Of a DNA stretch of 64,000 nucleotides, positions 10,991-58,299 are shown piece by piece. Positions within the stretch are counted from its first letter, which is position 1. Every line of letters begins with the position of its first letter. Below the pieces are notes generated by a model that was not told the origin of the DNA, did not search any database, and saw only the letters and a list, made by a program, of their open reading frames with translations. The stretch is taken from NCBI GenBank assembly GCA_977020255.1, contig CDROCS010001715.1, positions 186,001 to 250,000 of the forward strand, written 5' to 3'. The DNA comes from Obrimoposthia wandeli. Lineage: Eukaryota. The translations under genes and the position numbers were made by a program.

Positions 10991-11149
10991 TTTTTGTTTT
11001 TAATATTTTTCTCTGTATATCTTGTATTGGTAACATTTGTAAAACTGTGTTTTTGTGTTTGATCTCAAATTATATTTGTGGCTTTTTTTACTGTTGTATT
11101 CTCTTCTGGTACTTGTCGACATCTATTTATGTGTGTTCTTATTTCTTTT

Positions 11150-12250: not shown

Positions 12251-12399
12251 ACTTGATTGATGGTGATATACTTAATTATTTGTTGTAATTCCGTATCTTT
12301 GCTTTGAAGATCGGTGATTACTTTATCATCATATCGAGCCTTGATTATTGTAAAAATATTTAATTCGGTGTCATTGGAATTTATTACATTTACTTCTTC

Positions 12400-13620: not shown

Positions 13621-13822
13621 ATACGGTAAGGTCGTTGTTTGATTGCTGTATTAATAGTTAACGGAAGGTTATGTTTAATTAAATCTGTTCGTCCAAGGTC
13701 ATATTCATTTTTGCAAAAATTACGTCATATTTTTCCATCAATGATTTTAATTTTGATTTCTCATAATCATTTAATCTAATATTTTCAAATTTTACAGTGG
13801 AATTGTCTTCTATTTTTCATTA

Positions 13823-14215
13823 TTAATTAATTCTATATTCTCTATAACACTTATTTTTCCAAGGCGTGTTCCTACTTTTTAGATGAATCTCGTTTATGTC
13901 TCCATTTAGTATTCTGATAGGTATTGTATTATTTTTTATTTTACAAATTATATTTGGTAGAACGTAATTTAATGTTTCCTGTTGATATTTATAAGGTTCG
14001 AATAAGATGTCTTTTTCTGTAACTATGTTAGTTTCTAATTGTAATATTGTTTCTGTTCTAGGTTGAAGGATGATATCTCCTTTTATTTCCAATTCGTATT
14101 CGCTTTTAGCGTTTGGTCTGTAAATGTCTTTAATTTGATTTTTCTCGAAGTCGAAATGAAAATTGTTTCCTAATTTCCTTAATATATCTATTCTATTATC
14201 ATCTGACATGGACAA
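13823..14215 (-). pseudogene. spacer between protease and RT, possibly a degenerate dUTPase-like fold
   Basis: IILQPRTETIL...LFEP...PIRILN pattern, like spacers seen after the protease in some gypsy pol proteins. No catalytic dUTPase motifs were recognised. Confidence 0.35.
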
Positions 14216-14219
14216 TTTT

Positions 14220-14455
14220 TCATTATTCTAGTAGGTATTTTTATAAATTTATCTCCTATTTTAAAAATGCCATCTAATTTACTAATAATATTTACGGGTT
14301 GACCGTTTGCTGCTGTTATTTGACTGTTATCTGTGTGAAGTAGTGATATTTGGTGTGGTTTAAGAAAGACTCGTCCAAAACTGTTACGCTTGATCCTGTG
14401 TCAATTAAAGCTTTTAATTTGTACTCATTAATTTCAACTTTTTACATAAGGTCGT
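14220..14455 (-). pseudogene. retropepsin (aspartic protease)
   Basis: Removing one A from an A-run near 14440 gives RPYVKVEINEYKLKALIDTGSSVTVLDE (DTG catalytic motif). Confidence 0.9.
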
Positions 14456-16506: not shown

Positions 16507-18358
16507 ATTCTGGATGATTTTGTTAAAATTATATGTATTTTTAAGATTTGAATTTTTACTATTTTTTGGTGATTTTCGTTTATTTTTATTTTTCGATTTT
16601 TTATCTTGTGTTTGAGTGGTTTGATTTATTTTTGTACTTATTTGTGTTCTTTTTTCTAATGTTAGACAACCGTTTCTAAATATTTCTCCGAATTCGGATT
16701 GAGAGTTGGTACTATTTGTGTTTTGCTCATTGTTTTGGTATTGCTGATGTGTTTCTTTATAGCGATTATCTATTTCTTGTTGTCTTAATCTCATCAATGC
16801 AACTTCTTCTGTTTCCTGAGTTATATCAGTGTTTTCAATAGTATGTATTGGGTTTCTGTAAGCATATTGTTGATTTTGATTGTTAAACTGTACTGTTTTT
16901 TGAATCTGTGGTTGTGGTTGTTGTTGTTGTTTTATTGTTGTGTTACCAAATTGATTCATCATTGTATTTAGTTTGCTACATTCATCCGTATTGTGATTTT
17001 TCATATTACAAATTTTCCAAAATTTTGTATTAGTATTAAAATATTTAGCTTGATTATTTTGATTACTGAAATTATTATATGGGCTTCTAAAATTACTATT
17101 TGTATTTTTGAAATTATTATTTGGATTGTTGAAGTTATTATTTTGTGGTCGTATATTATTACTTTGTCTGTATAACAGTTTTCGGCAAGTTTCAATAGTA
17201 TGATTGTCTTTTTTTACAAAATCTACAAAATTTGTTGTTGGTTATTTTATAACAATTCTCTATTGTGTGATTTTGCAGTCCACAATTTGTACATTTTTGG
17301 AAAGGTCTTTGTGTAATTTGTGAGTCTGTATAGTTTCTGTTTGTTTGATTCCTATAAAAGTTATTTGTCGGTGGTGTATATTGTTGCTGGTTTTGGTAAT
17401 TAGATTGTGTATTTGGGTTATAGTTTTGAGTTTGATTGAAATTTGGTGGTGTTGTAGGTCTTTGTATTTTTTCAAAGGTTAATGCTGAAACTTCAGATTG
17501 TTGTAACATGTTTAATCTTGTTTCTACAAGTTGAGCCTTATTTACAGCTTGCTGAAAGTTTTCTACTTCTAGTAGAGCTGGATGATTTTTGATTTTATTA
17601 TTTAATCCATGTAGAAACTGATGTAATAGTAAGCGCTCTCTTAAAACTTCCTCAATTCCAGGGAATGATTTTAGGGCTAAACGTCTTAATTCAATTGCAA
17701 AAATATTTGTGGGTTCTCCTAAATGTTGCTCACGTTGTCTAAACTGATTTAAGTAATTTTGCTCTGATTGGGTTCCTAAAATCATATTTTGAAAATTCTG
17801 AACTAAATGGTTCCATGTGTCTTTTTGTTCATTGTTTAATTCTATATAACTTGTTAAGGCAGTGCCTTTTAAATACGCTGGAAAAACCCTAAGTTTCTCT
17901 TCATTAGTCCATTCAAATGCCTGAGCAAATGAATCAAATCTATTTAAAAATTCGGGTAATGAAGATTTATCGCCATTGAAAGCGTCCAAAGGATCATTTA
18001 ACTTATGTTCAGCCATTATTTGAGGTTGATTATCTATTTCTATATTATTTGGTTCGTTCAATTCGGGTTCTGGTGTGTTTGTAGTTTGAGTAGCTTCTGT
18101 TGAGCTATCGGTTTCTAGTGTTTGGTTAGTAAGGCCATCTGTTAGACTTTCTGAGCTGGTTAAGTTTAGTTGGATTGGGTGTTGGTGTTGTAATGAAGTT
18201 TCTGGGAAAAATTCGCTATTTGTTCTAAAGCTTATTTGAGATTTAGGTCTCTGTGGTGGTGATTCTTTAGGTTCTGTTCTTACTAGTCGGGCTTGAATTC
18301 GTCGCCAGTGAAGACTAGCGCTACGTTTGGATTTATGAATTTTATTATTTTTATTTAT
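16507..18358 (-). pseudogene. Gag with three CCHC-type zinc knuckles and Asn/Gln-rich linkers
   Basis: Capsid-like FLNRFDSFAQAFEWTNEEKL...LKGTA; knuckles CTNCGLQNHTIENC, CRFCKKDNHTIETC and (W)KICNMKNHNTDEC; one frameshift in an A-run near 17212. Frame is open up to 18358. Confidence 0.88.
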
Positions 18359-19994
18359 TCAACGCTTTTTATCACTATGTTGTAGATTTTATTAAAGTTG
18401 TTGAATTTATAATATTTAAATAACCAATTTTTAGCTTTTTTTGAATCAGATAATTTGTCCCAGACTTCTCAAGATTGCTGACCTATTGGATGTCGGCTAT
18501 CCTTGTTTCGCAATTATGAAAAAATGGATACAGAAAAATCTTGTTCAAAATTCTGTAAGTGCTTGAGGTTGATCACAGTATCCTTACTTTTGAATAAATC
18601 AGTTATACACTACCGCTAAGGGTCAATCTAATTCAGTTATATTATTGTTACGTATAAAAAAAAAATTTTGATTAATAAAATATTATTTGATTTGATTACT
18701 TTTATTACAAACAGCAAGTCAATTAATTGTTTGTTATACTTTATCAATGAAGATAGGAATAAAAATATTTATATATACGCAGCACAATAGGATTATTTAT
18801 TGATACTTTTCAAAGTTAAATTTGAAAAATGGAATACAATATATACGATTTTAATAATTATGAATTAGTTATAACTTTTAATGATGTCAACTTTTTAATG
18901 TAACAACTCTATGGTTCCAAATCAGTTTACCAAAGAATAAAAATGAATGTAAAATAGTAAGTCCAACTTCGAGAGATAATATAAATGGTATAAGTAGTTG
19001 AATCAAAAATCAAATACAATTGTAAAGCCGTAAAATTGTTTTTAATAAAAATTATGATATATGAACTTTTAAACAGTAATTATATTTTCAGAAATGTTTA
19101 GGTCAAGGTATTCCTACAGTCTCCCGCAATTCTATTTTCTACCTTCTTAACCAACCACCAAGACCACAACTGCTCCCTTATTCTACGGTTATCTGCTTAT
19201 TTTGGTCTCGGAACCTTTGTTTCGATTACCGCAGAGAGAGGAACAGTCCCGCTCAAAAATGGTCGAAAATTTTCAAACAATACTCGTGAGACTATAAGAA
19301 TCCCTAATTTTCAAAAATAATATTTATACGATTATGACATTCTATCTATCACTATTAGAAATAAATATAATTTTAAATACAATAATCAATTTTTAACACA
19401 AAAAAAAAAAAAACTATATAATTTTAGTTTATACTTTTTTAAATTTTCAGTTATTTATTGTAATCTCTACTTATATACACATATATAAATGGAAATTAAC
19501 TGAATATTTTATTCCCAGAAAAGAAACCGCAAAAATAAATATGTTAACAAATAAACCCAAAATATGAGTTTTAAAATTACTTCAAAGAAAACAATATAAA
19601 TATATTCTATAGTAAAATTTATGTAAGTTATGTTGTTCAAAGTTATTTATTGGATTAGTTTATAGAAGTTTGTGTTATAACCACAAATCAAATTCACAAT
19701 ACCGTTAAATGTAAATAAATTGAATATTACAAATGATGGAGTTAATATTAATAAAATTGAATACTAAAATGATTGTTAATAAAAAGTTAATTTTCAAAAA
19801 TTGAATTCAAAGTTCTCTAGGGCAACTAATCACAAATGAATACTACAAATTGTTATAGCTATAAAAAGTATTTAAATAGTTTCTGTTATTTTGAGCTTAA
19901 TGCAAAATCCGACCAAATAATGTTAATATATGAAAATGTAAAACAAAAACCAAAAATAAGGTAAAATCAAAATAATAAATGACCTGCTTGCGTT

Positions 19995-20011
19995 CTGGAT
20001 CGGGCTCACCA
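19995..20011 (-). promoter_or_regulatory. primer-binding site
   Basis: Minus strand reads ...ATATTACA-AT-TGGTGAGCCCGATCCAG directly inside the 5' LTR. TGG is complementary to tRNA CCA; the cognate tRNA was not identified. Confidence 0.8.
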
Positions 20012-20013
20012 AT

Positions 20014-21250
20014 TGTAATATTACAAATAACTGATCAGTTTGGGCAAATCCAATAATTTCGTAAATAAGAGTGGGCAATTCCAATATTATATTTGATCAA
20101 CAGATCAGTTTGGGCGAATCCAATAATTTCGTAAAATAAGAGTGGGCAATTCCAATAAAATAAGCCTCAATAAAATGTTATATTTCTTATTTCTTTGTAA
20201 ATTCTCAATTGATCAACAACTATTTTAGCAGAATTAATTTTGTTTGTGTTTCGTTCAACAGGAACGATCAAAAATCCAATTCCAATACTTTTTAACAGGA
20301 ACGATCAAAAATCCAAGTAAATTTGTTTTGTGTTTTTCATATATTTTCCATACAATTGATAAATTAATAAATTAAGAATTTGTGTTATACATAAAAATGT
20401 TATCCGTAGATATACGGGACAAAAATCAATCAGTGTAAGAGAGGCTGTGATGCATGCATGCACCCAGGTTGAAAGGACGCCAAACTGTCCAACTGTGCTG
20501 CAGTTTCTACACACATGCATTTAAATGGAGCCATCAAACACTATATGATCCAGAATCCCTCTCGAAAACACATTCACGGAATCTGCTAACAAACACACGC
20601 ACACACAGAAACTGAAAAGGGCGATACACAATAATAATAATAAAAATAGCAATTTAACGAGGCAGTAAAAGCTGTAATTGGAGGTGTGACATGTACACAA
20701 CTACTGCAAATAAGCAAGACTAAATAATCATAGGCAATAAAATACGAACTTAAATATCAATAATAATGGTAATAATAATGGTAATAGTAAAGGTAGAGAA
20801 TAGTCCTAGAATGTTTAGTGGTAAATCAGATATCAATTAATGTCAGCAATCCGGGGGAAAATGGGCAGCGGAAAGAGGGGATTGTATGTCCAACTGTGCA
20901 TGCACATCTCTGCCTTGGTAGCCACCATCCGAAGACGGCCGATCAGGATGACGGGAAAACGATGGGGAAGGATGGCGGGAGAGAGAGTGCAGCCGGGATC
21001 CGCTGACCGTTGCCGACTGAACGAATGCCGACGGCGATCTGCCGCCAGGCTGGGAGACTGGGCGGAAAATTTTTCCATAAATCAATCTTATCTACATGCC
21101 GCCTTCCTGACGAGCCCGGCAGGGCGAAACGGGACCACCCCGTCGGAGGCTGAATTTGAAAAACCTCCCTAATTGTGGGCACTTTAGATAATTTATAAAA
21201 TGTCAATTTAAATTGACTTTCTAAATTAATTATTAATTAATAACCCAACA
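20014..21250 (-). repeat. 5' LTR (right copy)
   Basis: TGTAATATTAC...TAACCCAACA; near-identical to the left LTR except a central block and the tandem-repeat region. Confidence 0.9.
21101..21150 (+). ncRNA. type I hammerhead ribozyme (intact)
   Basis: Stem I GCCUUC/GGAGGC, CUGACGA, stem II GCCC-GGCA-GGGC, GAAA, stem III ACGGG-ACCAC-CCCGU; cleavage predicted after C21144 (GUC). Confidence 0.92.
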
Positions 21251-22369
21251 CATTTATTTTTGTTTTCTGAGTTATAAAAAATAAACTAATAGCTTTAAAT
21301 TTTTGAATAAAATGAGAAACTTAATCAAGAAGCATTGATAGTAGCAACGAAAATGGAAGAAATTATTGAAGAAGAAAATAAACGATCAGAATTCTTAATT
21401 GCTTTGGCTTTTATTGAACCCATAATAGCTCATGCTTCCTGTATGAAAATGAATCGTATGACTTACCTTTGTGATAGTTTGTTTAAAGCTAAATTTAGTC
21501 AAATTAGTGCAAAAAGATTAAACATAAATTCAATGAGTGAAATTTGCGAGAATCAATTATATTGGAAATTATCGAGATGGTTTTGATGAAACTGAGATTC
21601 TAAAATCAGAATCCACCCATGTAATCATTACATCTATGGTGGATAAGATATCTTATAGAAATTAAAGTATACGTCTATCTTTGTAAACTCGGAATTAGGA
21701 GAAACAATATTGCAATATTATAAACAGACTAATAATATAATTAAAGAAATTATAAAAAAAAAGTTTTAGTATGTGGTCATTATGGAAGTTTACATGCTGT
21801 TTGCATTTTTATTTCTTTCAATGGGCGTTAGCACTGCATCCAATCTTGTTAAAGTTAAACGTAGTATTGATACACCTAGCGAAACTATGCTTAATCAAAT
21901 ACTTATTTTTAATCATTATCATATATAAATTGTATTCTTTATGAGTCTTTATTTGTTAGTATCTTTATTTGTCAGTGTATTTCAGCATCCAATCAGATTC
22001 TAGTTATATAGTATATAAACAGATTATATTTTATTTCTACTTCATTATTATGTTTACTCCCAATTATTTCAAGATATATGTTGCTTAAGCGTTAGATGCA
22101 TTCATCTCAAAAAATCTTAAAGGAAAATATGTCTTGAAACTCATCGAGACAACGGATCTGCCCATGGAAGAGCATGTAAAAAGAGTTATGCTCAACAAAT
22201 CTATCAAATGACTCATATTGGGCTACAATCAAAGGAAACAAAATCACGAGGAGCAGAAGAATAAGAAAAGCCTTTTCTGGGAGTAGAGTTTTTTATTGTG
22301 TATTGGTGGATATAATAAAATATTTTAAATAACTTTGTCTTATAAACATTATCTCAACACTCTAATATT

Positions 22370-23013
22370 TTAAATATGAACTTAAAAAATAATTCAGTTT
22401 TTAAAATAGTGGTGGCGAGAAAATTCTTTTAATTCGCAAGTTACTACAAAATATTAAATACTTTAGATTTAAGTTTAATAAGACATATTGGCATCAGAGG
22501 AGATGGAGAAGCAGGTTTTACTAGTAAAGAGTTAAAAATATAAAAAATATAAAAGCCAATAAAGGATTTGATGATATTCGGTATGAGAGATTATATCGAC
22601 ATGATGTTATTGTTATTGATGAATTGTATCGATATGCAAATAAAGAGAGTAATTTCAATAATTTATTCACTAAAATAGCAAGACATTGTGAAGTAACTGT
22701 TATTTTCTTCCCATAAAATCTGTTTCAACAGGATGGGAATCATAGAACTCGTAATTTAAATGTGCATTACCTTGTTATATTAAAGAATCCACATGATCCG
22801 ACTGTTACTGATTTTGTTTCAAGGTAAACTTACCCTAATAATATAAATTACTTAATTGATTCATTTCATGATGCAAGTACTGTTCCTCACGGGAACATTT
22901 TTATTGATTTGACACAAGATTGTTGTGATGACTTAAGATTTAGATCTGATATAGTCAATCCATCCGTTATTACCGTCTATAAACAATCAAAGAAACCAGT
23001 TTCTCGAAGATGA
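22370..23013 (+). pseudogene. Polinton packaging ATPase (A32/FtsK-HerA-like)
   Basis: VIVIDELY (Walker B), NLFTKIARH..VTVIF..*NLF, RTRNLNVHYLVILKNPHD, PHGNIFIDL...DDLRFRSDI; Walker A is decayed. Confidence 0.85.
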
Positions 23014-23111
23014 GTTTTAAAAAGGAAATTATTAAACCTGAAGTCAAGAAATTGATTAAATCAGTTTTAAGTGCAAGAAAGATGGTTGCTCAAAAATCAA
23101 ATAAGCAATGA
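23010..23111 (+). CDS. small Lys-rich Polinton ORF
   Basis: MSFKKEIIKPEVKKLIKSVLSARK..., homologous to MPFKKLIV...EVNKLIKSVVRNK at about 50367-50507. Confidence 0.5.
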   Translation: MSFKKEIIKPEVKKLIKSVLSARKMVAQKSNKQ

Positions 23112-23450
23112 ATGGTTGTTCTAGATAAGAAATCTATGAGTATTGCCTATTTTAATTCTCTTAAGCGTGAACCCGCTATTCGTCGTCCAACTATTCTTAA
23201 ATCATTCCCTACTTTTGTAGTCGATAATTTACTTAATATAGCACAAAAAATAGTTTCTGCTAAATCATTTGTTAGGACTAAAATGAATCGACATAAGAAA
23301 CCTCTACTTGATTTGTTTCATGTTAAAACACGAGCCTGTAAACGTAAATTGCCATAGAAGCAAATATAAAGATATTTAGGATTTATAGTAACGATTGTTA
23401 GTTCGATAGTTGGTGCACTTGCTAGGAGACTAATAAAACTATGTTTATAA
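23112..23450 (+). pseudogene. small Polinton ORF with amphipathic C-terminus
   Basis: ILKSFPTFVVDNLL...KPLLDL, homologous to 50534-50853. Confidence 0.6.
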
Positions 23451-24100
23451 ACATAATTTTGAATCAATAATATGAGATAACTTCCAGATATACCTAAATT
23501 AAATATAAAAATCAAATCGTCTTGCTGTAATGGAGAAAATATGGCTCAATCCAAGTCATCCTGTGGGTACACAGGAGTTTCAAAATTGGCAAGAGAAAGG
23601 GAAAGAAAGGGAAAGAGAAAACTTAGATGTGGTTGAAAATTAAACTAGCTTACAGCTTAAACAAACCGATGAGACATCGGTTCCCAACGAGATCATACAA
23701 ACCGAGCGGCCTGAATGATTTATGGCAAGCATATTTGATGGAAATGATACTGTATGAGAGTATTAAAAATATATATATTTTAACTCGTGTTGATGTCTTT
23801 AGTAGATTTGCAAGAGCTCTAAAGTCTAAATCCATAATGATGTTTTAGAGACAATGACGCAAATGATAAGGGAAATAAAACCAGCAAATTTCCAAATAGA
23901 TAGTGGAAAGGAATTTTATAATAAACATGTTAGTACATTATTAAAAAACATGATAATAATCATTATTCAGTGTTTTCTCAATATAAAACTGCCTTAGTTA
24001 AGCGTTTTAATCAAACATTAAGATATATATTGAAAGAGTATTTCACTAAGCAGGAAAATATAACCTGAGTCAGCGTTTTACTTCAAATAATACATGCATA

Positions 24101-25169
24101 TGTTGGGAATATCTTATAAATATTTATTTAAAAAATAAAAAATATATATATATATATATAAAAATTAAAAAATGAGAATTAATTAATTAAGGAATTAATT
24201 AAGAATTTCCCTTATTAGGGAAAAGTTCTATTTAGATAAAATATGCACTTTGGCATTTTAGTTTAGAGTGGTTAATCTCCGACAGGAAAAAAAAACGTTT
24301 CGCCCTGCCGGGCTCATCAGGGAGATGGCTTGTTATCTCTGACTTCGCGGTGGGTTCTGCGAAGCCAGAGATAACAATAATAAAAAGCCAGAGAAAAGAA
24401 GGAAAGATTTCCCTTTTCATGTGGCGACGAATATCGTCGACATGTGATGTTGGTGTGCGCAAGTACACATTTCAACACACACACTCACACAGCGGACATC
24501 ACTCAACACACTCACACAGCGGACATCACTGTACTCACTCACTTATTCTCTGTACTCACTCACCTACTCTCAGTCTTGTGTATGTGTGTGTATTTTATGC
24601 AAAACTATTTTCCTCTCTGTCCAGATACGATTCTTGCGGACAGATGGGCAGTTTGCTTGTGTGATCGTTTTCTCCCTCTTCCCAGATGCGCTACAATCGA
24701 TTGGCATGTGGGCATGATTTCGCGCTTCCAGTTGTGGGCAGCGTTTTCATCGGCACATATCCCCAGCGGAAGAATAAATTGTTGTGTACCTGCTATAAAA
24801 GCAACACATTTTCAATAACTAAAAAAGTCATGATTACACAGAAAAATACAGAATCATAAATATTATTATTTTATCATCGTTATTAAAACTGATAGAACAT
24901 CAAATTATTGAACTATATTTAATTGAAATCAGGACTATATTGTTATTCTAAAATTGAACAATTTGATTTGATTTGATTTTCCAGCTATTACTTTGGAAAC
25001 ATTATTCTATTATTTTAGAAACAATTTGAACAATTTGATTTTCCAGCTATTACTTTGGAAACATTATTCTATTACTTTAGAAACAATTGGATTTGATTTT
25101 TTCGGATATTGTTTTGATTAAGACAATAAAAATTGATAATAAAATTACTTATTATTCAATATATTAACA
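24101..25169 (+). mobile_element. solo LTR of a family related to 6073/20014, in opposite genomic orientation
   Basis: TGTTGGG...ATATTAACA; perfect 4-bp TSD CATA (24097-24100, 25170-25173); related tandem repeats at 24950-25110; TATAAAA near 24795. Confidence 0.92.
24275..24326 (-). ncRNA. type I hammerhead ribozyme
   Basis: Minus strand reads ATCTCC-CTGATGA-GCCC GGCA GGGC-GAAA-CG(T9)CCT-GTC-GGAGAT; perfect 6-bp stem I and minimal stem III. Confidence 0.88.
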
Positions 25170-26329
25170 CATACAATCATAGTGAACAGTCATCATTAGA
25201 GAGAAAGAGACCTATTGATGTTACAGATGAAAATGCTATCAAAATTTGGCAACATCGTAATCAAAGAAAAGTTGTAAAGAAACCCAAGTATAAAATTGAG
25301 GATTATGTACGTATTTCTCAAATTAGTACTACTCCTTTTATAAAGAATTTCTAAGAGAATCGAAATTAAATTGAAGGGGGAAAATTTGAAATAGTTTTTA
25401 ATGATGAAATTATTGCAGAACAATATGTATTTCCAACTAAACCTAATGATGGAAAATATGTGGCTTCAGGAATTATGGATAAACATAGTAAGTATCCAAT
25501 AATATGTTTTAAGATAAAAAAAATAATTCACTAAACATGAGAGGAAAAAAAACAAAAACTTATATATTCAAAATTTAAACTACTTAAAATCAAAAAAGTA
25601 AAACCAAAAGCAATGTTAAAGAAAAATATACAAAAATATACAAATTAATAAGTAAAGAAAAAATTACTATTTTTATTCAAATTTTCTGATTGGATTGAGA
25701 GTAAGTTCTACATTAAGTTAATCTCATTGGCTTAATACTATTTTAAAAATAGTATATAAGAAAGTACGAAGCAGCTGAGAATGGTAAGATTATTGATATT
25801 ATTTTTAATTTATCTTTTTCAGAATTGCAAGATGAATAATAAACTCTGTTTTAATCGTCAACAAGGCCAACCCCCTCGACTTCCCATCATGTTCAATGTT
25901 CCATACAACGTTCTCGATGTACCACATCGCTAATCGAGAATGCAACCATGCGGAAGTCCCGAAGAGCGAAGAGCGGACCAGCTCAACAACCAACAATAAC
26001 CGAAAGTAACTTTTTGACAAAAACGTGACATCATGAACTAACCCTGTGTATCGCATACTGCGATAAAATATCTACCAGAAATTGTATGTTATAAATTAAA
26101 TCTTCTTGTAAAATTGTAACGATTCTCGACGATTTTAAGTATGTTGTATATTTGGAACTGTAATTATTATAATTGAAACTCCTAAAGACAATCTTTTTAT
26201 ATCTGAGAAGTGAAAATCATCAAAATAGTGACAAAATTCGGTTAAGTAGCTTAGGAAGAGATAAAAGTTTGTATAAGGATTTAAATTAATACACTCCCAA
26301 AAAACCTAATCATAAATAATGCCATGCAT

Positions 26330-47618: not shown

Positions 47619-48385
47619 AGAATATGTCGTGTGTCCTGATTTTCACGAAATATATCCCGTTTTATTACTATGTTTTGTCTGCCATTTATTCTCCGCTACG
47701 TACTTGACGTGCTATTTAAGCCTAAAATTTCTACCCATTTATTTGATTTCGTGCCCAATAATGTTTATGGCCACAACATAATTTGCACATTTGGTAAAAA
47801 ATAGTCGAAAATCGTGATTCCTGTGTGTCAGAATTTACTTCCTTTGCTAAATTGTTAATAATTTTCATGAAACCGTTTCTATAAAATGATTTCCATTTTA
47901 TAATATCGAAATGGTTAGTTTAAGACAGTAGGTGAATGTGTCCGGTCTAATCCACACCCCCTCCCCCGGGGGGCTACCACTGTCCTTTAAAACCGTGCAT
48001 GTGTGTGGAGTGAAATTTTGTGTATGTGTGGAGTGAAATTTCGTGCATGTGTAGGGAAATATTTTTGTTGAAAAATTGAAAAATTAACGAATAGGAACGT
48101 GGGTGACCCCACCCACTTATTTTTTATTTTACTTTGAAATTTACCGCGAATCTCAAAAGTGATTAGAGAAGACCACGGGAATCTATATTGGCCCCGGCGG
48201 CTTATCGCAGACGAGATTTCAAATAATATGTTAATATATTACTACTATTTTTAAGAAAGATTTTAGATTACTACATGTTTTTGTTAAATATTTAGGTCAG
48301 ATTTATAAGAGAAAAATTAGGTCAGATCTATATTATTTAGAGGAGAAAAACAAAATACGAGTCAAAATTATTTTCAAAACATTTA

Positions 48386-48796
48386 TTAAACATAAAACAT
48401 CATATTGGCTTCACTCATAGTCCAAAGAGGCTGCATTTTCCCGTCATCAGCAAAATATCCATTGAGACGTATTGAGATATTCCATAGTTCTTCATCTAGA
48501 ATTGGAGCAATCAAATATCCTAGATCCTCTTTAAAATCCAGACTGGGGTAACTTTCAAACTGGAAACAATTTCCATCATATACATAATCAGGAATGTAAA
48601 ATCCCAAAATATATTTCAATTGATCAATATCAGATGTTGTTAAAATTTCGATGAGATATTTATTCTCCACTTTTGATATTTTCACAGGATTCATAACTCG
48701 TATAATTTGATGCCTCTTTAATATATTACATAGTTTTCCTTTTGAAATTCTTTCTGGATAATAAAAATTTCCTACACATCTCAAAAGAGAATCCAT
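48386..48796 (-). CDS. Polinton terminal-repeat gene of unknown function
   Basis: Intact ORF; motif WNISIRLNGY...G..QPLW.M..A is shared with 48945-49397 and 57330-57598. Confidence 0.7.
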   Translation of the reverse strand: MDSLLRCVGNFYYPERISKGKLCNILKRHQIIRVMNPVKISKVENKYLIEILTTSDIDQLKYILGFYIPDYVYDGNCFQFESYPSLDFKEDLGYLIAPILDEELWNISIRLNGYFADDGKMQPLWTMSEANMMFYV

Positions 48797-48944
48797 TCTA
48801 AAATAAGGAAACTGATTAAAAAACAATGTTTATAAAAAATACATATAAGATACAAATATTTTAAAAATAAAACTTATTATTAATTGACAAATGAAAGAAA
48901 CATAGTAAAACCGATTGCAATTTATTACATACAAAATGAAATAT

Positions 48945-49397
48945 TTAAAACATAGAAATATGAGCACGTTCAATTTTCCACTTAGGCAACTTTGTCCCCA
49001 TTTCATCTTTCTTGTAACCATAAAGTCGAATTTTTACAGTCCATTGCTTCTTTTTCGGAAACGCATCAACATCTATTTCTCTTCCATAGTCATCTAGAAA
49101 TGCTTCATCGGCTCCTCGGATATAAAATTCGTTCTTATTGAAAGTAAAATTCGGAACTGCCTTTTCAATTTTCTGTTTAAGATATTGAAAATCTGGTTTT
49201 TGAATATTTGATAGATAGTAGCTGAACTTTCTTCTTTCAATTGTCACAGGATTTACTAAAGCAATCAGTTGAGCCTTCTTCAAGAATCTGACTTTGTATT
49301 TGAAATATTGTGTCACTTCTTCATACATATCCTTATCCGATTCTTCAAACATTTCCGAATCTTCGTCACCGCTTAATACCCGTTGGCTATCGTCCAT
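48945..49397 (-). CDS. Polinton gene of unknown function, paralog of the previous ORF
   Basis: Intact ORF with acidic N-terminus; WTVKIRLYGY...G...PKWKIERA; TATAAAAG upstream (49458-49465). Confidence 0.7.
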   Translation of the reverse strand: MDDSQRVLSGDEDSEMFEESDKDMYEEVTQYFKYKVRFLKKAQLIALVNPVTIERRKFSYYLSNIQKPDFQYLKQKIEKAVPNFTFNKNEFYIRGADEAFLDDYGREIDVDAFPKKKQWTVKIRLYGYKKDEMGTKLPKWKIERAHISMF

Positions 49398-49643
49398 CGT
49401 TGATAATTGTCTTTGATATGAATGCATTTATTGTGATTTTTCCTCCAATGGCGCATTCTTTTATACTAATTTCTAACAAAGACATGAATCTCATTGGTTA
49501 ATATAACTAAAGCATTGAATTTGATTGGAAGAAATATATCATCCAATTATAATAGGTTTGCAAGATAATTACAAGAAACGTGCAATAAAAAAGCAGTTTC
49601 AGACATATATAAAGAAGATTTTACAGAAAACAACTTTAGTCTA

Positions 49644-50144
49644 ATGAAACTCGTAAATATAAATTATAAAGGTAGAATAGAAGATGATGTTTTGTACTTA
49701 CCATTCAATGAATGAAAGCCGAGACAATATGTGAAAAAGTTTGACAATTTCATAGTTATTATTTTTCTTACAGGTTAATTTTTTATTTTATTTTCATATT
49801 GAATTCTTTTAGGAAATTGTCGTGTTATGGGATGCAAAATACCAATGCTTGGGTTCAATTTACCATTTGGAATTCGAATCACTGCAATACAATCAATCAC
49901 GATTTCGGCTAATCTTGGGAAACAGATAAATCTTTTAAAAACTGCAGAGAAAATAAAAGAAGAATGCATGTTTGAACCAGAAATTTTTCCTGCTCTCAGT
50001 TATTTGAAGTTTAAACCGCTATGTGTAAATATATTTTCCAGTGGTGAAGTTATGATATTGGGATTGAAAAATTTCGATTATCCAGACATTGTTGATTTGA
50101 TTTTAGAAAATATATCTTATTACATCTTGTTATCTTTTCTATAA
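49644..50144 (+). CDS. TATA-binding-protein-like gene (39-nt intron 49774-49812; one TGA at 49713)
   Basis: Spliced product has both TBP half-repeats: IIFLTGNCRVMGCK and IQSITISANL..QINL...FEPEIFPALSY...VNIFSSGEVMILGLK. Confidence 0.85.
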
Positions 50145-50366
50145 ACAAACCCGTTTAAACTTATTGTTTCAAATGAATAATACTATAAATAGAGACAAAA
50201 TATCAATGCTTATGTTCGAATTACCATAAACAAGCACATGGGTATATATTTATTGACTTTACACAAGCTTGCCCAGATGATTTATGTGTTTTTACAAACA
50301 TATTTAATTCTAAGGGAGTAACTGTTTATAAACAAATAGAGGACAATTATAAAAAATAAATTTGCA

Positions 50367-50507
50367 ATGCCTTTTAAGAAGTTGATAGTAAAACGTAAAG
50401 TTAAATCTAAGAAATCAAAAAAAATAATCATTGAGAAAAAAGAAGTGAATAAATTAATCAAATCTGTAGTTAGAAATAAAAGAAAACTTAAATGGCTTCG
50501 AATATAA
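50367..50507 (+). CDS. small Lys/Arg-rich Polinton ORF
   Basis: MPFKKLIVKRKVKSKKSKKII...KLKWLRI*; homolog in copy B. Confidence 0.5.
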   Translation: MPFKKLIVKRKVKSKKSKKIIIEKKEVNKLIKSVVRNKRKLKWLRI

Positions 50508-50533
50508 ACAATATTCAAATTGAATTTTTTTTA

Positions 50534-50853
50534 AAATGAAGAAAATACAAAGAAGCATACCACATTTTAAAGCTTTGGTCAAAGCCTCTTCTCATAAGAG
50601 AATGATTATTCTTAAAGAATTTCCATCTTTTGTTGTAGATGATTTATTGGAAGTTTTGTATAATATAGTTTTGAGTTGAGTAAACGGAAAAATGTATTAA
50701 AGAAATATAGAAAACCTCTTCTAGATATTGCTAATGTAAAAAGTAAAAAAAGGAAACGAAATATTATTCTTAAACATAATGGTGGTTTCATAGGAGCTGT
50801 TATTCCAGTTGTCGCTTCAATTATCAGTAGTATTATAGCTGCGACACGTTCAT
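50534..50853 (+). pseudogene. small Polinton ORF ending in GG plus a hydrophobic amphipathic helix
   Basis: ILKEFPSFVVDDLL...KPLLDI...HNGGFIGAVIPVVASIISSII; one break. Confidence 0.65.
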
Positions 50854-50941
50854 AAACAATTAATTCAAAAATCAGCTAAAGATATGGGTGCTAACCCTTC
50901 TTTACCTAAATTTAAATTTTCTATATATTGAAATTGTTGTA

Positions 50942-51971
50942 ATGGAGAAGATATGGTTCAATCCAAAAGATCCAATTGTATACACAGGAATTTCAAAATT
51001 AGCAAAAAGAACAAAACAAAATTACAAGAAAACGCAGAAATGGCTGAGCGATCAGTTAGCCTACAGTCTGAACAAGCCGATGAGAAGAAGGTTTCCAACT
51101 AGAGTTTACAAAACCAGCGGTCCTAATAATTTATGGCAAATGGATTTGATGGAGATGATCCCATATTCTTCCATTAATAAGGGATACCGATATATTTTAA
51201 TATGTATTGATGTATTTAGCAGGTTTGCTCATGCAATTCCAGTTAAAGCAAAGTCTTCAATAGCTATGCTTGAAGCCATTAAAGAAATATTAAAAGAGGA
51301 CATTCCACAAAATGTGCAAACTGATTTAGGAAAATAATTTTATAATAAGCAAGTTCAATCATTATTTAAACAAAATAATATAAATCACTACTCAGTGTTT
51401 TCACAATACAAAACAGCAGTAGTTGAAAGATTTAATCGTGCTTTAAGAGATCGAATAAAAAGGTATTTCACAAAAGAAGGAAATGAAAAATGGGTCCAAG
51501 TTTTACCTAAAATAATACATGCATATAATCACTCTGAACATAGAGGTCTCAAGGGAATGAGACCTGTTGATGTTACTAACAAAAACTCTATGGATATTTG
51601 GATAGACAGGAATAAAATAGAAAATATTAAAAAAGCTAAATATAAGATTAAACGAATATGTTCGAATTTCTAAAATTAGCTCTACTCCTTTTATTAAAAA
51701 ATTTGATCAGAATTGGAGCGATGAAATATTTTGTATAAGTAAAATTGATCAAAAGAGTAATTCAATAATGTATACTATTAAAGATGCTGACAATAATATC
51801 GTTCACGGTAAATTTTACGATCAAGAACTACAAGTAATATCATATAAACCTAGCGTTTTCCGAATTCAAAAAATATTAAAATCTAAGGGTGCCGGTAAAC
51901 ATAAACAATACTTTGTTCAATGGCATGGTTATTCAGACCCAACTTGGATATCAGCATCTAATATAATATGA
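50942..51971 (+). pseudogene. Polinton integrase with C-terminal chromo-like domain
   Basis: LWQMDLMEM, YILICIDVFSRFA, VQTDLGK*FYN, AVVERFNRAL, YFVQWHGYS; one stop and one frameshift. Confidence 0.95.
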
Positions 51972-52790
51972 AGTCTATGTATATGGTGTTACCTAGTAAC
52001 GGATGTCCGAAGACTCAACCAGATAAGGACGCTAGTAGCTTTATTATCGATTTGGAAAATCCTATAAATCTCCAAGGTTAATGGGAAGCGACTTTAACAA
52101 AATTTCCTTTTTATTATTCTCCAATTTCTATCAGAAAAAACTCACATATTTCGTTTACAAAAGAATTTGATCATGAAAAAACAACTGAAGTTGTGATCGG
52201 GTTTGATAGTAAAGGAAATTTCTTTTACAATTGTATAGATAAAGAAGTGAAAGTTATATATGAAAATAAAAAAGTCAGATTTAAAAATCAATTAAAATAT
52301 CTTCAAGTTATTAAAATTACATTTGAATCTGAAAAAGAAGCTCTTCAATTCAGTTTTGATAGTGAACAAACAGTAGCTCGTAATAGACGGAATATAGTCT
52401 CATCTAAATCGGTTAGAAATGTTCCTGGTAGAGTAGCAAGAGTGTTGTTACTTGAAACGAGACCAAAGAATGTAGTGGAATTGAAAAAGTTTTCAAAAGA
52501 TTATAAAATAGATAGTGAAGTGAATTTTATCTAAATTAAGACAGAAGGAATATAGTGAATATTTGGATAAATGTGTAACATTAAAAAAAAGTAAATTATT
52601 GTTTACAGTAAAGATCAATTTGAAACGGGTTTCATTTCAAAGGAAGCCACCATAAAAGCTAAAAATAAGGCAAAACGTTTATATGCTGTTAATCATTTAT
52701 ATATTTATACTAATTTAATAGAACCAACACTTGTAGGAGGACAACAAGTTCCACTTTTGAGAACAATATGGATATCTCAAAATCAAACTA
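51968..52790 (+). pseudogene. minor capsid protein (penton, PX)
   Basis: MYMVLPSN...FIIDLENPINLQG*WEATL start; YIYTNLIEPTLVGGQQVPLLRTI end. Confidence 0.8.
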
Positions 52791-53092
52791 ATGATGGATC
52801 TGGCTGGCTTAGAACATTAGGTAGATTTGCCTTTTCTCTTTTAAAGAGACTCAGGAAATTTGTATCAAAATTAGGAAAGTACTACCTTTCATCTAATGAC
52901 AATAAACTAATACCAGCTTTTAAAAAGCATGCACTTAATGAACTTGATAATGTTTTACCTGACGTTGCTAATTTGATTAGAAAAAGTAAATCAAATAAAA
53001 GCCAAGAAGGTAGTGAATTTAAAAGTAAAAAGAAGAAAAAAATTAATATTAACAAACGTAAGAAAGTTGAAGGAACAATATATGTAAAATGA
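52790..53092 (+). CDS. small basic amphipathic Polinton protein upstream of MCP (cupiennin-like in adintovirus terms)
   Basis: GSGWLRTLGRFAFSLLKRLRKFVSKLGK...QEGS..KKKKK. Confidence 0.6.
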   Translation, partial: NDGSGWLRTLGRFAFSLLKRLRKFVSKLGKYYLSSNDNKLIPAFKKHALNELDNVLPDVANLIRKSKSNKSQEGSEFKSKKKKKININKRKKVEGTIYVK

Positions 53093-54320
53093 GTTGCGCC
53101 AAAACCGAATTGTGTATTTTTGATAAACCACTTCCACAAATAGTTGTAGATAATGCTTCCTTTGAAGAAATATTTCTAGTTAACTCAGTTTCAGGAACCA
53201 CTTTAACCGATTTAGAATTTAATAATAATGGTTCCAATAGCGAGTATTTAGATTTGAATGATACTTTGCTTTATGTTCAAATAAAAGTATTAAATCGGGA
53301 TGGTACAAATTTAGAGGAAAATGCCGATGTAACACCTGTAAATTATCTCTTTAATTTTTTATTTAGTGATGCCTTTGTTACTCTTAATAATGTCAAAATG
53401 GAAGGTGGAAATTCTTCCTATGCTCATAAAGCTTTTATTGAAAGTCTTTTGAATTATTGTACTGATACTCAAAATACTAATTTGGCAACCATTGGTTATA
53501 TGATAAAACGGTTGCAACTCGCTAAGAATGGATTGCAGGTTCTAAAGCTTACGAAATGTGTGGGTCTTTGAGATTGAATTTCTTTGAACAACCGAAATAT
53601 TTAATTTCCGGTGTTAATGTACATCTTTGTTTGAAACGTAATAAATGGAATTTTTCTTTGATAAGCAAAGACGTTCTAAAACCTATACTTGATATTTTGG
53701 ATGCAAAATTGTATGTTCGAAGAGTTAAAACTGAGCAATCAGTTTTAATGGCACATAATATAGGAATGGAAAAAAACAATGCTTGTTATCCTATTAGAGA
53801 AACTAAACTTTTATCTTATTCTTTAGGTACGGGTACACAAGCTTTTAATAAGGATCAAATGTTTGGTGATGTAAGATTACCAAAATTCATTTTAATTTCT
53901 TTTCAAAAAACTGCAAAGTTTCTAGGAAATTATACGACAGATGTAACTCAATTTGACAATCGTGATGTAGGTTCAATGACACTTTCAAGAAATACTGATT
54001 ATCGCGAAACATATAAAACAGATTTCGAAGGTAACGCTTATGCTTTGGCTTATACGCTATCTATTATTCGGAATTTGGGTCAACTAGATAACAATATAAA
54101 CAATGGTATTTCTTTCACTGAGTTTAAAAGTAGCTGCTCGTTCTTCACATTTGTTTTGGCACCAGACTTTGATATAAATCAATGCCAACTACCAAAGGAT
54201 GGAAATTTACGACTAGAAATTAAGTTCAATGCAGCTTTAACACATCCTACTACGGTGCTTATTTACGGAGTATTTGATTCGGAAATAGAAATAAGTAAAA
54301 ACAGAACTGTCATATTATAG
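53089..54320 (+). pseudogene. major capsid protein (PY, double jelly-roll)
   Basis: CAKTELCIFDKPLPQ, EYLDLNDTLLYVQIK, LLNY, KLYVRRV, PKFILISF, NGISF.EF...F.FVLAPD, GNLRLEIKF; frameshift near 53500. Confidence 0.92.
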
Positions 54321-54321
54321 A

Positions 54322-54703
54322 ATGAAGTAAGAAATTTTTTAAATTTATATTTATTAATTTTTATTTAGTTCAGTACAAGTACAAGAATCAACAGAGAAGG
54401 TCCTGGGTGATAAATTCAATGGAGTTTATCCAATTGATATGATTCCATTTTTTCAATCTGGAGGTTACATTATCAATACTCATACTTCGAATTTACCAAG
54501 AGAACATTGGATAGCTATTTATGTTAGAGAGTGGACAATACATCTATTTGATCCACTTGCAATGTATTAACCACACAAACTTGTTTCAACTATTCAAAAA
54601 GGACGAAGAAGAGTATTTTACAACAAGATACAATATCAGGATCCTGCGACGAGAAACTGTGGACATTTATGTATTTTATGGTTATCGTTGCAAAACGTTT
54701 AGT
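54322..54703 (+). pseudogene. adenain-like cysteine protease (42-nt intron 54327-54368; one TAA)
   Basis: Spliced MNSVQV...FNGVYPID...INTHTSNLPREHWIAI...FDP...Q...CGHLC (H, D, Q, C catalytic motifs). Confidence 0.9.
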
Positions 54704-54864
54704 GTGTTTTAAAAATAAATATTTTTAATGTTTTATTTTTAATTATTTTTTAAATCCATAATAAATATAAGGGTAAAATAATAAAAGACATAAGACGAAT
54801 TTTTTTAATACATTTATTAAAAACAACATCACAATGAGATCTGTCAGCAAAGATAAGGTCCATC

Positions 54865-57280
54865 CTAAAAAATGTATTGAAATAACAAAAAGTTAGAGTT
54901 AGTATCTAATAAGTTGTCCCTAAACATTGCTGGTAATAATTGATTATCTAAACTAACATTTTTACATTCTAAAAAGAAAGAGTCAGTGTCCCCAGCTGCG
55001 ATTTTAATCTCACAATTGAATTCTCGTCGATATTTCTCTAATTCTATGTATTGAAGCTCGTACATTCTGAGTTTAGAAATGTCTAAAACCGTTTGACCTA
55101 TATAACTCGGTCGATCGAGACAAATACTCTGTTTTCCTAATAACACTGCTACCAAGCCATCTGCAATTGTAAAACTACGCTTGAAGTTGTACTTGCTAGT
55201 ATATGTTATTATTTTACGCTCATCATTGCAAAACCGTAGAAAAATACGTCTTTAAACACAAAGTTTTGACTGAAGCTTATAGCACGATGAATTCGAGTAA
55301 CTTTCGCTCCCAACTTTAAGTAGAATTGAAGAAGCCGCCAATGTACAACATAATTCAACTTGTCTTCATGGGTTAACAATAATTTCTTAACCTTTGAATT
55401 AGGTGGGCATTGATGAACAGGTGCTACTGGAAGATCATCTAATTTATCATGCACATTGGAAGGGATTGTTAAGTCAACCTCAACCAAATAGCCGATTTCT
55501 AATGAAACTGTATCAACAGTAACCGAATCTGTCATCAACTTATTCAACTCTTCCTCGTCATAAACCCACTTAAAGTTGGCATGAGGTAGAGGTTGAGTAA
55601 GCGCCCACCCATACAAATTATTAATGTCGATGTAAAGAATCTCCGTGGATTGATTTTTGACAACATAATGTTTGTTGACAAAAGTCATTCCACCGCGTAT
55701 ACCATAATCATACATTTGATACATCGCGGGATCTTGCAGTAACTCGATATTAATTTTAAGAGTTTTTATTGCTGTTGCCCATGAAAGACAAGGTAAACTA
55801 AAGAAATGCATGGGATCTAGCCTATCTTCTGCTAAAGAATTTACACGAAAGGATTCAAACACATCAGCTAAAAGATGAATGTCTAACTTCATATAATAAA
55901 GCATATAATCTAAAAGATTTCGACAATTATTCCCCCAAAATGTACGGGCCTCATTATAGTCTTGAAGGCTTACACTTTCAAATTCAGTTATGGATGGGAT
56001 TTCAGTTGTATTTTCTAAATCTGCAAAGGTTTTCGCAAATTTATACGGAAAAATCCCCTTATCATTAACCGAAGCTAGGAACACTGACTGTGTAATTGGC
56101 CATGCATTTAAAGATTCCGTTAAATTTTTTAAAGACCCGCTCAAAAACTGCAGAGAATCTATGAATCTTAAACTGCAGAATTCAGTATATGCAGTTAAAG
56201 ATAAATATTTCTCTGAAGTTTGAGGTATACATGAAATTTCCCAAGAGCTTAATGTAACCAACGCGTATTTAAGTATATGGTGTAATTCATATCTTTTGAC
56301 ATTATGAAACCCGATTGGAATGCGTGGTTTTTTAGGAAGATACGGCCAAGGTTACAGAGGTTGCACGCCACTCCCAAGTATCGCCCCGTAATATTGTCGT
56401 AATTTCTGACTAACTTAGACTGGGTACCACACAAATAACATAATCTACAAGAATTAAAATTAACCCAGTCTATGCCTGTCATGATCATTGCTTTATGAGC
56501 ATTAAGATCATACCACGGTTTGACAACTGTAGTTCCTAATTCTTCTAATTTTAACATAAAATCTAAAATACAATTTGGACCGGAAAATTTATGATACTGT
56601 GTAATAGTGGGGCCTAAGAATAGTAGTCCTGCCGAAGTCGGTAGGTGAATACTCTCATACTGGTCATGCAATATTAAAATTGACTCAAAATCTGTATACA
56701 CCCTGAATTCCACGGGTATGCATTTTGCCCAATCACTAAATTTTAAATCCTTATCCTTAGGCATGCTGTATAGCGTATTGTCATCAGGATTCAGTGTACA
56801 TAATGTAAGATGTTTGCTGTAAGAGAGCTCGGATCGGAATCCATACAAACATCTATGACACCACTTACACCTTATCCTAACCGGTAAGGCTCCATTATCT
56901 AAATTTAGAAGACGATCTAAATTTGGAATTGCAGCATAATGGAATTTTTTATTATGTTCGAGCAAAATTAAGTTGACCTGAGTTCCCTCATTTTTGCTAC
57001 TATAAATTACATCTACAAAAGGATTTTTAAATATTTCTTCATCTGTTACATTAACTGGGACATCAGTATTATATTTGAATACATTAATACTCAAGTTATT
57101 AAGGTGTTCAAATCTTGATATCGCAGTTAATTTAACAGGAAAATCTATCCCATGATACTGCAATTCATTTAAAAAAGGGATATATTTACTGACACGCTCT
57201 CTGTGCTCAGTAATTACATCCTTTTGAGGATGGCCAACTCGCTATATAGAAAGCAAAGGTTGTTACTGTTTTGTACGTTA
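54865..57280 (-). pseudogene. protein-primed family B DNA polymerase, truncated at both ends
   Basis: CHRCL...H zinc finger, VYTDFES, endonuclease VII-like CYLC...CNLCNL, RFIDSLQFL, KGIFPY, GIRGG, YIDINNLYG, GDTDSF; motif B is mostly deleted. Confidence 0.93.
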
Positions 57281-57329
57281 ACAATGGAACGTGAAAGTTG
57301 AAGAGATCTAGGTGAAGAAATGTATGAAC

Positions 57330-57598
57330 TCCCAGAAAGATATATCATGTCAGTGAACTTTGTTAGAACAAAGCTAACATCGTGAATTCTAACTAGATAA
57401 ACTACTTAACTGATTATGCATATGAATTGATTCCAGTCTGGCTTTTAGAAATGACCTTGGTTATTTGATTATTACACTTTTAGATGAAGAAATATGGAAT
57501 ATTTCAATACGGCTCTATGGATATTATGCTGATAGTTTCATTAAAAAATACAACCTCAAGGAACTTTGAATGAAGCTAATATGGTGTTTTACAATTGA
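57330..57598 (+). pseudogene. third paralog fragment of the terminal-repeat gene
   Basis: DLGYLIITLLDEEIWNISIRLYGY...EANMVFYN*, an inverted counterpart of 48386-48796. Confidence 0.8.
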
Positions 57599-58299
57599 AA
57601 TTTGTTTTGATATAATAAATGTATTGAAGATAATATTTGTCTTGTATTTTTTTCTTCTTCTTAAAAATATATATAATTCTGACCTACTGACTTTTGTCCT
57701 ACTATTGTGTTGTCATTTATTTATTCAAAATTATCATCTTAAGTCTCGTCTACGGCAAGTCGATAATGACGGGCCAATTTGGTTTCATGTGGTCTTTTAT
57801 AATCACTTTTGAGTACATTGGTTCATTCTCGAGGTCCGGTATGAAATTCATACACACGCATGAAATTTCACATCATACACACATATACGGTTTTAAAGGA
57901 CAGAGGATAGGGTGAATTAAACCGGACACTTGCACCTACTCTGAAGCATAATTTGTTTTTGTTATTTTTTTGTTGAAAGTTTGTCTTTATTAAAAATAAT
58001 CACTACGTCTTCAATTTTTCGGATTGTTTTATATTTAATTGACACAAATAAACTTATTCCAACCACTTTGAAATCTCTATATATAAACGTTGATATCGTT
58101 GATATTAAGGTAGTTTCCTTTAACATGAATTTCCATAATTTTCAACATTTCTTCTTATTTTCGACATTTATATTTGTAAAAAATTCGTCTTTCTATTAAT
58201 GTTTATTTTTAAATAAACCTGATAATTAATATTTCCTGTATTAGTTTTGTTTCGAGTGAAAACATTCATATTACCAATTTATATACAAACTAAAAACTC

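Follow-up and report, generated by a model that had tools for sequence, protein, structure and literature searches.

What does a Polinton do with a TATA-binding protein (TBP) of its own? The question is raised by a locus in Obrimoposthia wandeli, on contig CDROCS010001715.1, where the first-pass annotation of a stretch of 64,000 nucleotides (hereafter the window, meaning the whole stretch) had proposed that a Polinton encodes a minimal TBP homologue (mini-TBP) of about 150 residues.

A mini-TBP gene in a degraded Polinton

The gene model of the first-pass annotation held up, and the protein product did so only for the gene and not for this copy of it. On the plus strand, an ATG at 49644 opens a reading frame whose stop codon ends at 50144, and splicing of a short intron leaves 154 codons. 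Because an in-frame TGA lies at codon 24 of exon 1, the copy in the window is unable to make the protein of about 150 residues. We considered a splice variant that would skip this stop codon and ruled it out, since intronless homologues align across the region. The mini-TBP gene is real and its copy in the window is dead. The peptides FEPEIFPAL and IFSSGEVMILG, cited as marks of the two TBP repeats, are both found in the translated gene, and exon 2 matches the Pfam TBP family PF00352 (one repeat matched, E 2e-11, 44 bits with a cut-off of 22.9) as well as TBPs in the PDB (E 4e-12 to 1e-5).

The predicted Polinton setting was confirmed by the integrase, the polymerase, the inverted ends and the other element genes that surround the mini-TBP. 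Of the genes by which Polintons/Mavericks are recognised, the protein-primed family B DNA polymerase (PolB) and the rve integrase were found by Pfam, and the packaging ATPase as a remnant. The inverted arms of this copy are 76-90% complementary, and no matching 6-bp target-site duplication flanks it. Its features are:

47927..57940: degraded Polinton/Maverick copy of family A, with ends AGTAGG.../...CCTACT
48386..48796, minus strand: second copy of an SSB-like gene, 27-28% identical to the SSB-like gene at 48945..49427
48827..48834, minus strand: TATAAACA word upstream of the second SSB-like gene
48945..49427, minus strand: conserved neighbour gene, predicted T7 gp2.5/Enc34-type SSB (AF2 and Foldseek)
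49458..49465, minus strand: canonical TATA box TATAAAAG of the SSB-like gene
49606..49613, plus strand: canonical TATA box TATATAAA of the mini-TBP gene
49644..49773, plus strand: mini-TBP exon 1, 130 nt, aligning with intronless homologues
49713..49715, plus strand: in-frame TGA at codon 24 of mini-TBP, which breaks the copy
49774..49812, plus strand: 39-nt GT-AG intron of the mini-TBP gene
49813..50144, plus strand: mini-TBP exon 2, with the Pfam PF00352 and PDB TBP matches
50140..50147, plus strand: TATAAACA word preceding a small ORF downstream of mini-TBP, seen in 28 of 30 copies
50228..50335, plus strand: remnant of an A32-like packaging ATPase, its last ~36 codons, most of the gene being gone here
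50327..50334, plus strand: TATAAACA word at the 3' end of the ATPase
50491..50813, plus strand: PX/PZ-like core protein gene, broken; the homologue on metagenome contig L034 has a weak Adeno_PX match (E 0.011)
50503..50510, plus strand: TATAAACA word before the PX/PZ-like core gene
50852..50858, plus strand: ATAAACA word before the small ORF/integrase unit
50942..51968, plus strand: rve integrase, broken (Pfam rve E 3e-8; stop at codon 132)
51901..51907, plus strand: ATAAACA word within the integrase 3' end, before the presumed minor capsid gene
51920..52981, plus strand: presumed minor capsid (penton) and PW-like genes, fragmented, located by tblastn to L034 ORFs
53089..54320, plus strand: presumed major capsid gene, broken, 54-57% identical to an L034 ORF
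54358..54567, plus strand: presumed adenain-like protease fragment with a His-Trp...Asp motif, which is fuller in family D
54868..57241, minus strand: protein-primed family B DNA polymerase, broken (Pfam DNA_pol_B_2 E 5e-9)

The ATPase remnant is 72% identical to residues 191-226 of the L034 ATPase, a protein with a Pox_A32 match, and the gene is whole in sister copies of the element. Some of the names above are our assumptions: we take 51920..52981 to hold minor capsid (penton) and PW-like genes from their position, there being no family match; the major capsid gene is presumed from size and position, and its protein gave no Pfam DJR, PDB or pairwise match; and the protease label is likewise presumed.

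The conserved neighbour at 48945..49427 yielded an AF2 model with a pLDDT of 77.5, whose best Foldseek rows were Enc34 SSB, ASFV CP312R and T7 gp2.5 (E 0.05-0.17, probability 0.89-0.99). These matches, weak but consistent, suggest that it folds like a T7 gp2.5/Enc34 SSB and unlike TFIIB. SSB-like homologues adjoin the TBP gene in other elements too. No Pfam match to TFIIB was found in the element ORFs scanned, and PHROGs returned nothing useful for the mini-TBP or its neighbours.

The mini-TBP gene had been described as transcribed divergently across a region with TATA-like boxes on both strands, and both points are correct: it faces away from the two minus-strand ORFs, and both boxes fit the canonical TATAWAWR. 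As canonical boxes are frequent in the AT-rich window (2.4 per kb, both strands), these two say little by themselves.

Copies, intron and families in the genome

An exact 23-mer from family A exon 2 occurs 6,919 times in the 1.35-Gb genome, with zero occurrences of its reversed control; family A is a high-copy Polinton with thousands of copies. From the 30 best exon-2 matches, 28 copies could be aligned over both exons. Sixteen of these are open after splicing and 12 are broken, in a sample that is biased towards intact copies because it was chosen by best exon-2 match. Exon 2 measures 332 nt in all 28 copies and exon 1 measures 130 nt in 22, while the intron between them ranges from 34 to 45 nt with all three phases present (9, 8 and 11 copies); its GT is kept in 27 copies and its AG in 26. 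An intron interrupts the same codon in L034 and in families B and C, and family D is intronless. Judged by these alignments, the 39-nt intron is real and its site is common to four related elements. Four sequencing runs behave like DNA from a single sample and so do not bear on splicing or expression.

The genome hosts at least four families of mini-TBP Polintons (A, B, C and D). The TBPs of families A, B and D are 45-49% identical to one another, and family D gave at least 150 matches in its genome search. Together these families may account for several per cent of the genome. One family B copy (L148) also carries an IAP-like gene (BIR and RING) and a dual-specificity phosphatase gene, at 3568-4566 and 5696-6439, each with a TATATAAG box upstream.

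Fold and surfaces of mini-TBP

Exon 2 retrieved six proteins at 47-53% identity, and a profile of these six gave 277 matches at E<=0.001; nearly all of the 120 best are 130-195 residues long. Our alignment comprises 116 rows, namely 115 of the best 120 plus exon 2, five partial or overlong rows having been omitted. The aligned proteins are mostly 144-165 residues long and 36-74% identical to the first row, and intronless members align through both exons and over the splice junction. A search of a viral contig set with the mini-TBP alignments, the L034 ATPase, the L034 capsid-like protein and an ATPase alignment found no relative. One sub-branch of mini-TBPs, on contigs L035, L036, L037, L038 and L039, has as its neighbours longer SSB-like genes, an exonuclease-like ORF and an LRR ORF; these contigs are too short to reveal the element type.

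We modelled the homologue P0002, which is 47% identical to exon 2, with AlphaFold2 (pLDDT 96.7). The model spans both TBP lobes and has no long helix between strands S5 and S1'. All 44 Foldseek rows listed at E<=0.001 are TBP structures (best E 4.5e-9), superposition on human TBP 7egb_P by VIA aligned 149 residues (Z 13.2, rmsd 2.6), and an Atlas search returned TBP clusters, so that the postulated TBP fold was recovered, in this homologue, by comparison of structures. On the strength of the model, mini-TBP appears to have the whole TBP saddle except helix H2.

The two-lobed saddle is common to mini-TBP and the cellular and archaeal TBPs (PF00352; PDB 7egb_P, 1cdw and 1mp9). Compared with cellular TBP, mini-TBP is about 25-30 residues shorter: H2 is missing, H1 and the first stirrup are shortened, and F99 is lost. 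The absence of an N-terminal extension and the shortened first repeat had both been noted at the outset, and rightly. Residues are numbered here as in yeast TBP by way of the host TBP, the first-lobe register being inferred from an anchored alignment. From G125 to Q158, host TBP counts 33 residues and mini-TBPs mostly 20-21, which makes the H2 region 12-13 residues shorter. In cellular TBP, the basic patch of H2 is described as the surface for TFIIA, TAF1, Mot1 and Brf1/2 (PMC7221094).

Other surfaces have been kept. The equivalents of the TFIIB-contact residues E186 and E188 are E in 111 of 116 proteins (D in the other five) and in 115 of 116, respectively, and N69, F116, Q158, F190, P191 and F207 also have kept equivalents. 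Three of the four intercalating phenylalanines are retained (114/114, 116/116 and 116/116); the one lost is yeast F99 (human F193), in whose place 99 of 115 mini-TBPs have K or P. On the DNA face, mini-TBPs have near-invariant N, R, M, S, T, R, C and N, in this order, where cellular TBP has V71, V122, T124, N159, V161, I194, V203 and L205. The alignment thus points to a DNA face that is rebuilt in a protein whose TFIIB-contact glutamates are kept; by the same comparison, mini-TBP would differ from a canonical eukaryotic TBP in lacking both the set of four phenylalanines and H2, and would agree with it in the stirrup glutamates. Three of these positions, I194, V203 and L205, are the ones changed in the altered-specificity mutant TBPm3, in a paper that also assigns the 3' half of the TATA box to the N-terminal lobe (PMC1636458), and F99, like the other N-lobe phenylalanine, is reported to insert between base pairs 7 and 8 (PMC3142196).

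A promoter word before presumed late genes

The word ATAAAC[AG] stands 15-110 nt upstream of all 25 late-class starts in five elements, at -25 to -53 in 18 of them, and before none of 12 mini-TBP starts. By late class we mean the ATPase, PX/PZ-like, pre-integrase, penton-like, PW-like and capsid-like genes, a label taken from gene type and not from timing; the five elements are one copy each of families A, B and D and L034, plus the ATPase of L033. Canonical TATAWAWR boxes have the opposite distribution, with 7 of the 12 mini-TBP starts and 3 of the 25 late-class starts; among the 30 best family A copies, 25 have a canonical box upstream of mini-TBP. The SSB-like neighbour gene is mixed (late word in 2/7, canonical TATA in 4/7). 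Five start coordinates are a few bases off, which shifts the distances slightly and leaves the classes unchanged.

Random windows contain the word in 10-15% of cases in the sense direction and in 0-4% in the antisense direction. TATAAACA occurs 19 times in the window (shuffle mean 9.65, reached in 0 of 100 shuffles) and six times in L034 (shuffle mean 1.02, reached in 0 of 200 shuffles). The word was first spotted by eye in family A, L033, L034 and L036; families B and D were inspected afterwards and fit in 12 of 12 cases. Where it falls inside the 3' end of the integrase, the encoded residue changes (His, Asp or Asn) and the DNA word stays constant. The T that may precede it is not fixed, being present at 46 of 72 ATAAAC sites. 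One family D copy (L141) has no word before its ATPase; we do not count this as a difference of the family, two other family D copies having the word there. A further decayed Polinton piece of family B type, at 21700-25400 of the window, has five TATAAACA words on its plus strand.

Control Polintons came from three lineages, one of them at 47% GC. In a second Polinton group of the same genome, the mini-TBP profile had no match in L186, L187, L189, L190 or L197 and the word preceded 0/9, 0/6 and 0/8 of the non-PolB ORFs, in elements whose ends are undefined, so that absence of the gene is not proven. This group is low-copy and has (in L186-L187 and L189-L190) a DJR capsid, Adeno_PX, an A32 ATPase and a PLA2-like domain in the integrase ORF. 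The word is also missing before the ATPase, PZ-like and penton-like genes of L066 and L098, two metagenome contigs whose TBPs are full-length. Co-occurrence of word and mini-TBP does not count as a series of independent events, because the elements sharing both are related.

Mini-TBP as a likely private late-promoter factor

Since the element carries both a mini-TBP and a non-standard TATA word, it likely brings its own Pol II switch for late genes. We give a probability of roughly 65% to the reading that mini-TBP is expressed early and serves as a private factor for late promoters, to which it brings host TFIIB and Pol II; in this reading, binding, recruitment and timing are all inferred. Host TBP would transcribe the mini-TBP gene early, from its canonical TATA box, and host splicing would remove the short intron. 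Mini-TBP would then bind (T)ATAAAC[AG], a TATA variant whose C at position 7 should make it a poor site for cellular TBP: C at this position inactivates the yeast HIS3 TR element (PMC4457894) and is accommodated by cellular TBP only through a Hoogsteen pair (PMC4402545; Patikoglou et al., 1999, as cited in both articles). The retained glutamates of the C-terminal stirrup would recruit host TFIIB and Pol II, and a TBP without H2 would be beyond the reach of TFIIA, TAF1, Mot1/BTAF1 and the Brf contact on the N-lobe. The packaging, capsid, core and integrase genes would thus be turned on in the second step of a two-step cascade.

The N-lobe, which reads the 3' half of the box, is the part rebuilt here. 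The likely target of mini-TBP, as the sequences suggest, is the (T)ATAAAC[AG] before late genes, and the two TATA boxes named in the first-pass annotation belong to the canonical class, which probably serves host TBP. That annotation had also supposed that the element may redirect host Pol II/III initiation. The Pol II part gains indirect support from the above; a Pol III role does not, because mini-TBP has no H2, which in cellular TBP contributes to the Brf1/Brf2 surface.

Several observations speak against the late-promoter reading. Some of the words sit inside upstream coding sequence, 7 of the 25 lie 67-100 nt from the ATG, and 5 of the 12 mini-TBP genes have no canonical TATA box. Moreover, the most striking changes on the DNA face, I194R, V203C and L205N, belong to the C-lobe, which contacts the half of the box (5') that is unaltered, and the model leaves them unexplained.

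The strongest alternative, which we consider unlikely, is that host factors read the word, be it a TBP that tolerates C at position 7 or a forkhead-type activator, and that mini-TBP, resistant to regulators, acts as a booster in general by loading TFIIB on any AT-rich promoter of the element, its own included. ATAAACA matches what we take to be the forkhead consensus, and the variable first T of the word fits this alternative. Host TBP is a conceivable reader because wild-type cellular TBP binds the C(-25) variant in crystals, through Hoogsteen pairs (PDB 1qn3; PMC4402545), and the loss of H2 would mean escape from Mot1 and TAF1 whatever the DNA target (PMC7221094). Yet 18 of the 25 words stand at TATA distance, none of the 12 mini-TBP starts has one, the second Polinton group has the same host factors at its disposal and lacks the word, and a general booster has no need of near-invariant, non-canonical residues on its DNA face.

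These residues also speak against the suggestion of the first-pass annotation that the protein is a decoy. A decoy or repressor would soak up host TFIIB or occupy TATA boxes, and so damp host transcription or early transcription of the element. The TFIIB-contact glutamates are indeed the best-kept surface of the protein, and the loss of one of four intercalating phenylalanines together with the TFIIA surface could give non-productive complexes; however, the DNA-facing strand residues are near-invariant over 116 otherwise divergent proteins, and an element-specific promoter word would be left unexplained. As the main reading it was not borne out, and we regard it as improbable.

Still less probable is a reuse of the TBP fold outside transcription, for instance to bind AT-rich terminal repeats or origins in replication or packaging, in company with the SSB. 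The gene usually adjoins the predicted SSB gene and lies near PolB in family D and on L066/L098. Such a role would not need the TFIIB-contact residues, though, the word marks gene starts and not termini, and early genes cluster anyway.

We would give even odds to a bolder form of this reading, in which the pair amounts to an orthogonal two-part switch: the smallest natural two-lobed TBP, stripped of H2 and re-tuned to a TATAAAC box that cellular TBP could not use, would plug into host TFIIB and drive a late cascade in an animal Polinton lineage. With a dedicated factor and a defined word, the timing of Polinton capsid and packaging genes could be tested with one small protein and an 8-bp site. 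Mini-TBP would also be a natural experiment, its sequence suggesting that H2 and one intercalating phenylalanine were dropped and the TFIIB-contact residues kept, and it may yield an orthogonal TBP-promoter pair usable with host Pol II. Were the switch real, the host genome would be strewn with a foreign TBP and its private promoters, in thousands of copies of which many are open.

Relation to host and full-length Polinton TBPs

In a quick IQ-TREE tree of 81 rows, in which long branches meet, the 39 mini-TBP rows form one group (SH-aLRT 92), and host TBP and its paralogues fall among cellular TBPs (support 98). The element TBP is 27% identical to the first exon of host TBP, compared with 43-54% between element families. 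That the gene is a functionless passenger, a host TBP pseudogene captured recently, is hardly credible: the window copy is broken, as are 12 of the 28 alignable top copies, and several host TBP paralogues exist as possible sources, but the identities and the tree set mini-TBPs apart, and the gene is kept in at least four element families of the genome and on unrelated metagenome contigs. The one-off host pseudogene against which the first-pass annotation had warned is likewise at odds with this conservation.

The canonical host TBP gene has a 47-nt intron (L111/L112; G000:C238:871939-874000) and is adjoined, head to head, by a divergent TBP paralogue. Further TBP-like host paralogues, intronless or split, are among the loci L113, L114, L115 and L117. 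The host genome also has several Brf1-like genes of the TFIIB family or duplicates of them (L180-L183); in the host TFIIB gene, the first cyclin repeat was seen only as a short exon piece.

Full-length TBP-like genes occur on the two Polinton-like metagenome contigs L066 (2654-3166, 170 residues) and L098 (2248-2829, 193 residues), where they adjoin PolB and exonuclease-like genes. The L066 TBP has R and N at the positions of I194 and L205, as mini-TBPs do, and a single query with the L066 protein found no counterpart in the genome. These full-length Polinton TBPs are possible intermediates.

Comparison with known viral and Polinton systems

By analogy, mini-TBP would work most like the late TBP mimics of herpesviruses, without being one of them. 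EBV BcRF1, KSHV ORF24 and HCMV UL87 likewise combine a viral TBP fold with a variant TATA word: they are described as large proteins that bind TATT late promoters and, in a six-member viral complex, recruit host Pol II (PMC4893493). In contrast, mini-TBP is a bare core of about 150 residues with the word (T)ATAAAC[AG] and a kept TFIIB stirrup, and Pfam scans of the 7-15 kb elements found no partner genes of the herpesvirus type. In a BFVD search with the mini-TBP fold, the herpesvirus late factors were weak matches (E 2e-3 to 6e-3); the best was a Heterosigma akashiwo virus TBP (E 1.9e-8, 17% identity). Giant-virus (Nucleocytoviricota) TBPs are also reported to be without the N-lobe regulator signature, but have full-length lobes, vary at the TFIIB glutamates and nearly all come with a TFIIB of their own (PMC7221094). 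Mini-TBP, unlike these, keeps both glutamates, and no TFIIB-like gene accompanies it in the element ORFs scanned.

With Polintons, Mavericks and adintoviruses the window family shares PolB, the rve integrase, the A32-like ATPase, protease-like and capsid-like genes and long inverted ends starting AGTAG. Vertebrate Mavericks are described as having eight intronless core ORFs, in a main text that mentions neither TBP nor TATA (PMC8097293); compared with them, the window family adds a TBP gene interrupted by a conserved spliceosomal intron, an SSB-like gene next to it and a shared promoter word. The main text of PMC11071308 likewise has no mention of TBP or TATA. The sole direct mention that we found is in Starrett et al. 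(2021; PMC8502044), where the legend of Fig. 5 gives a gene of a MELD virus or related element the label TBP-like; supplements, Repbase and subscription papers, which lie outside this survey, may list the gene. In the Polinton literature searched, no main text describes the TBP truncation or the promoter word.

The window contains other mobile elements as well. Two more decayed Polinton pieces lie at 4821-5955 and 11499-11759, and an LTR retrotransposon at 6072-21244, with repeats 13.8 kb apart, carries gag and RT-RNase H together with an ORF (14434-15492) for a fusion glycoprotein of the Monjiviricetes type (Pfam E 2.5e-57).
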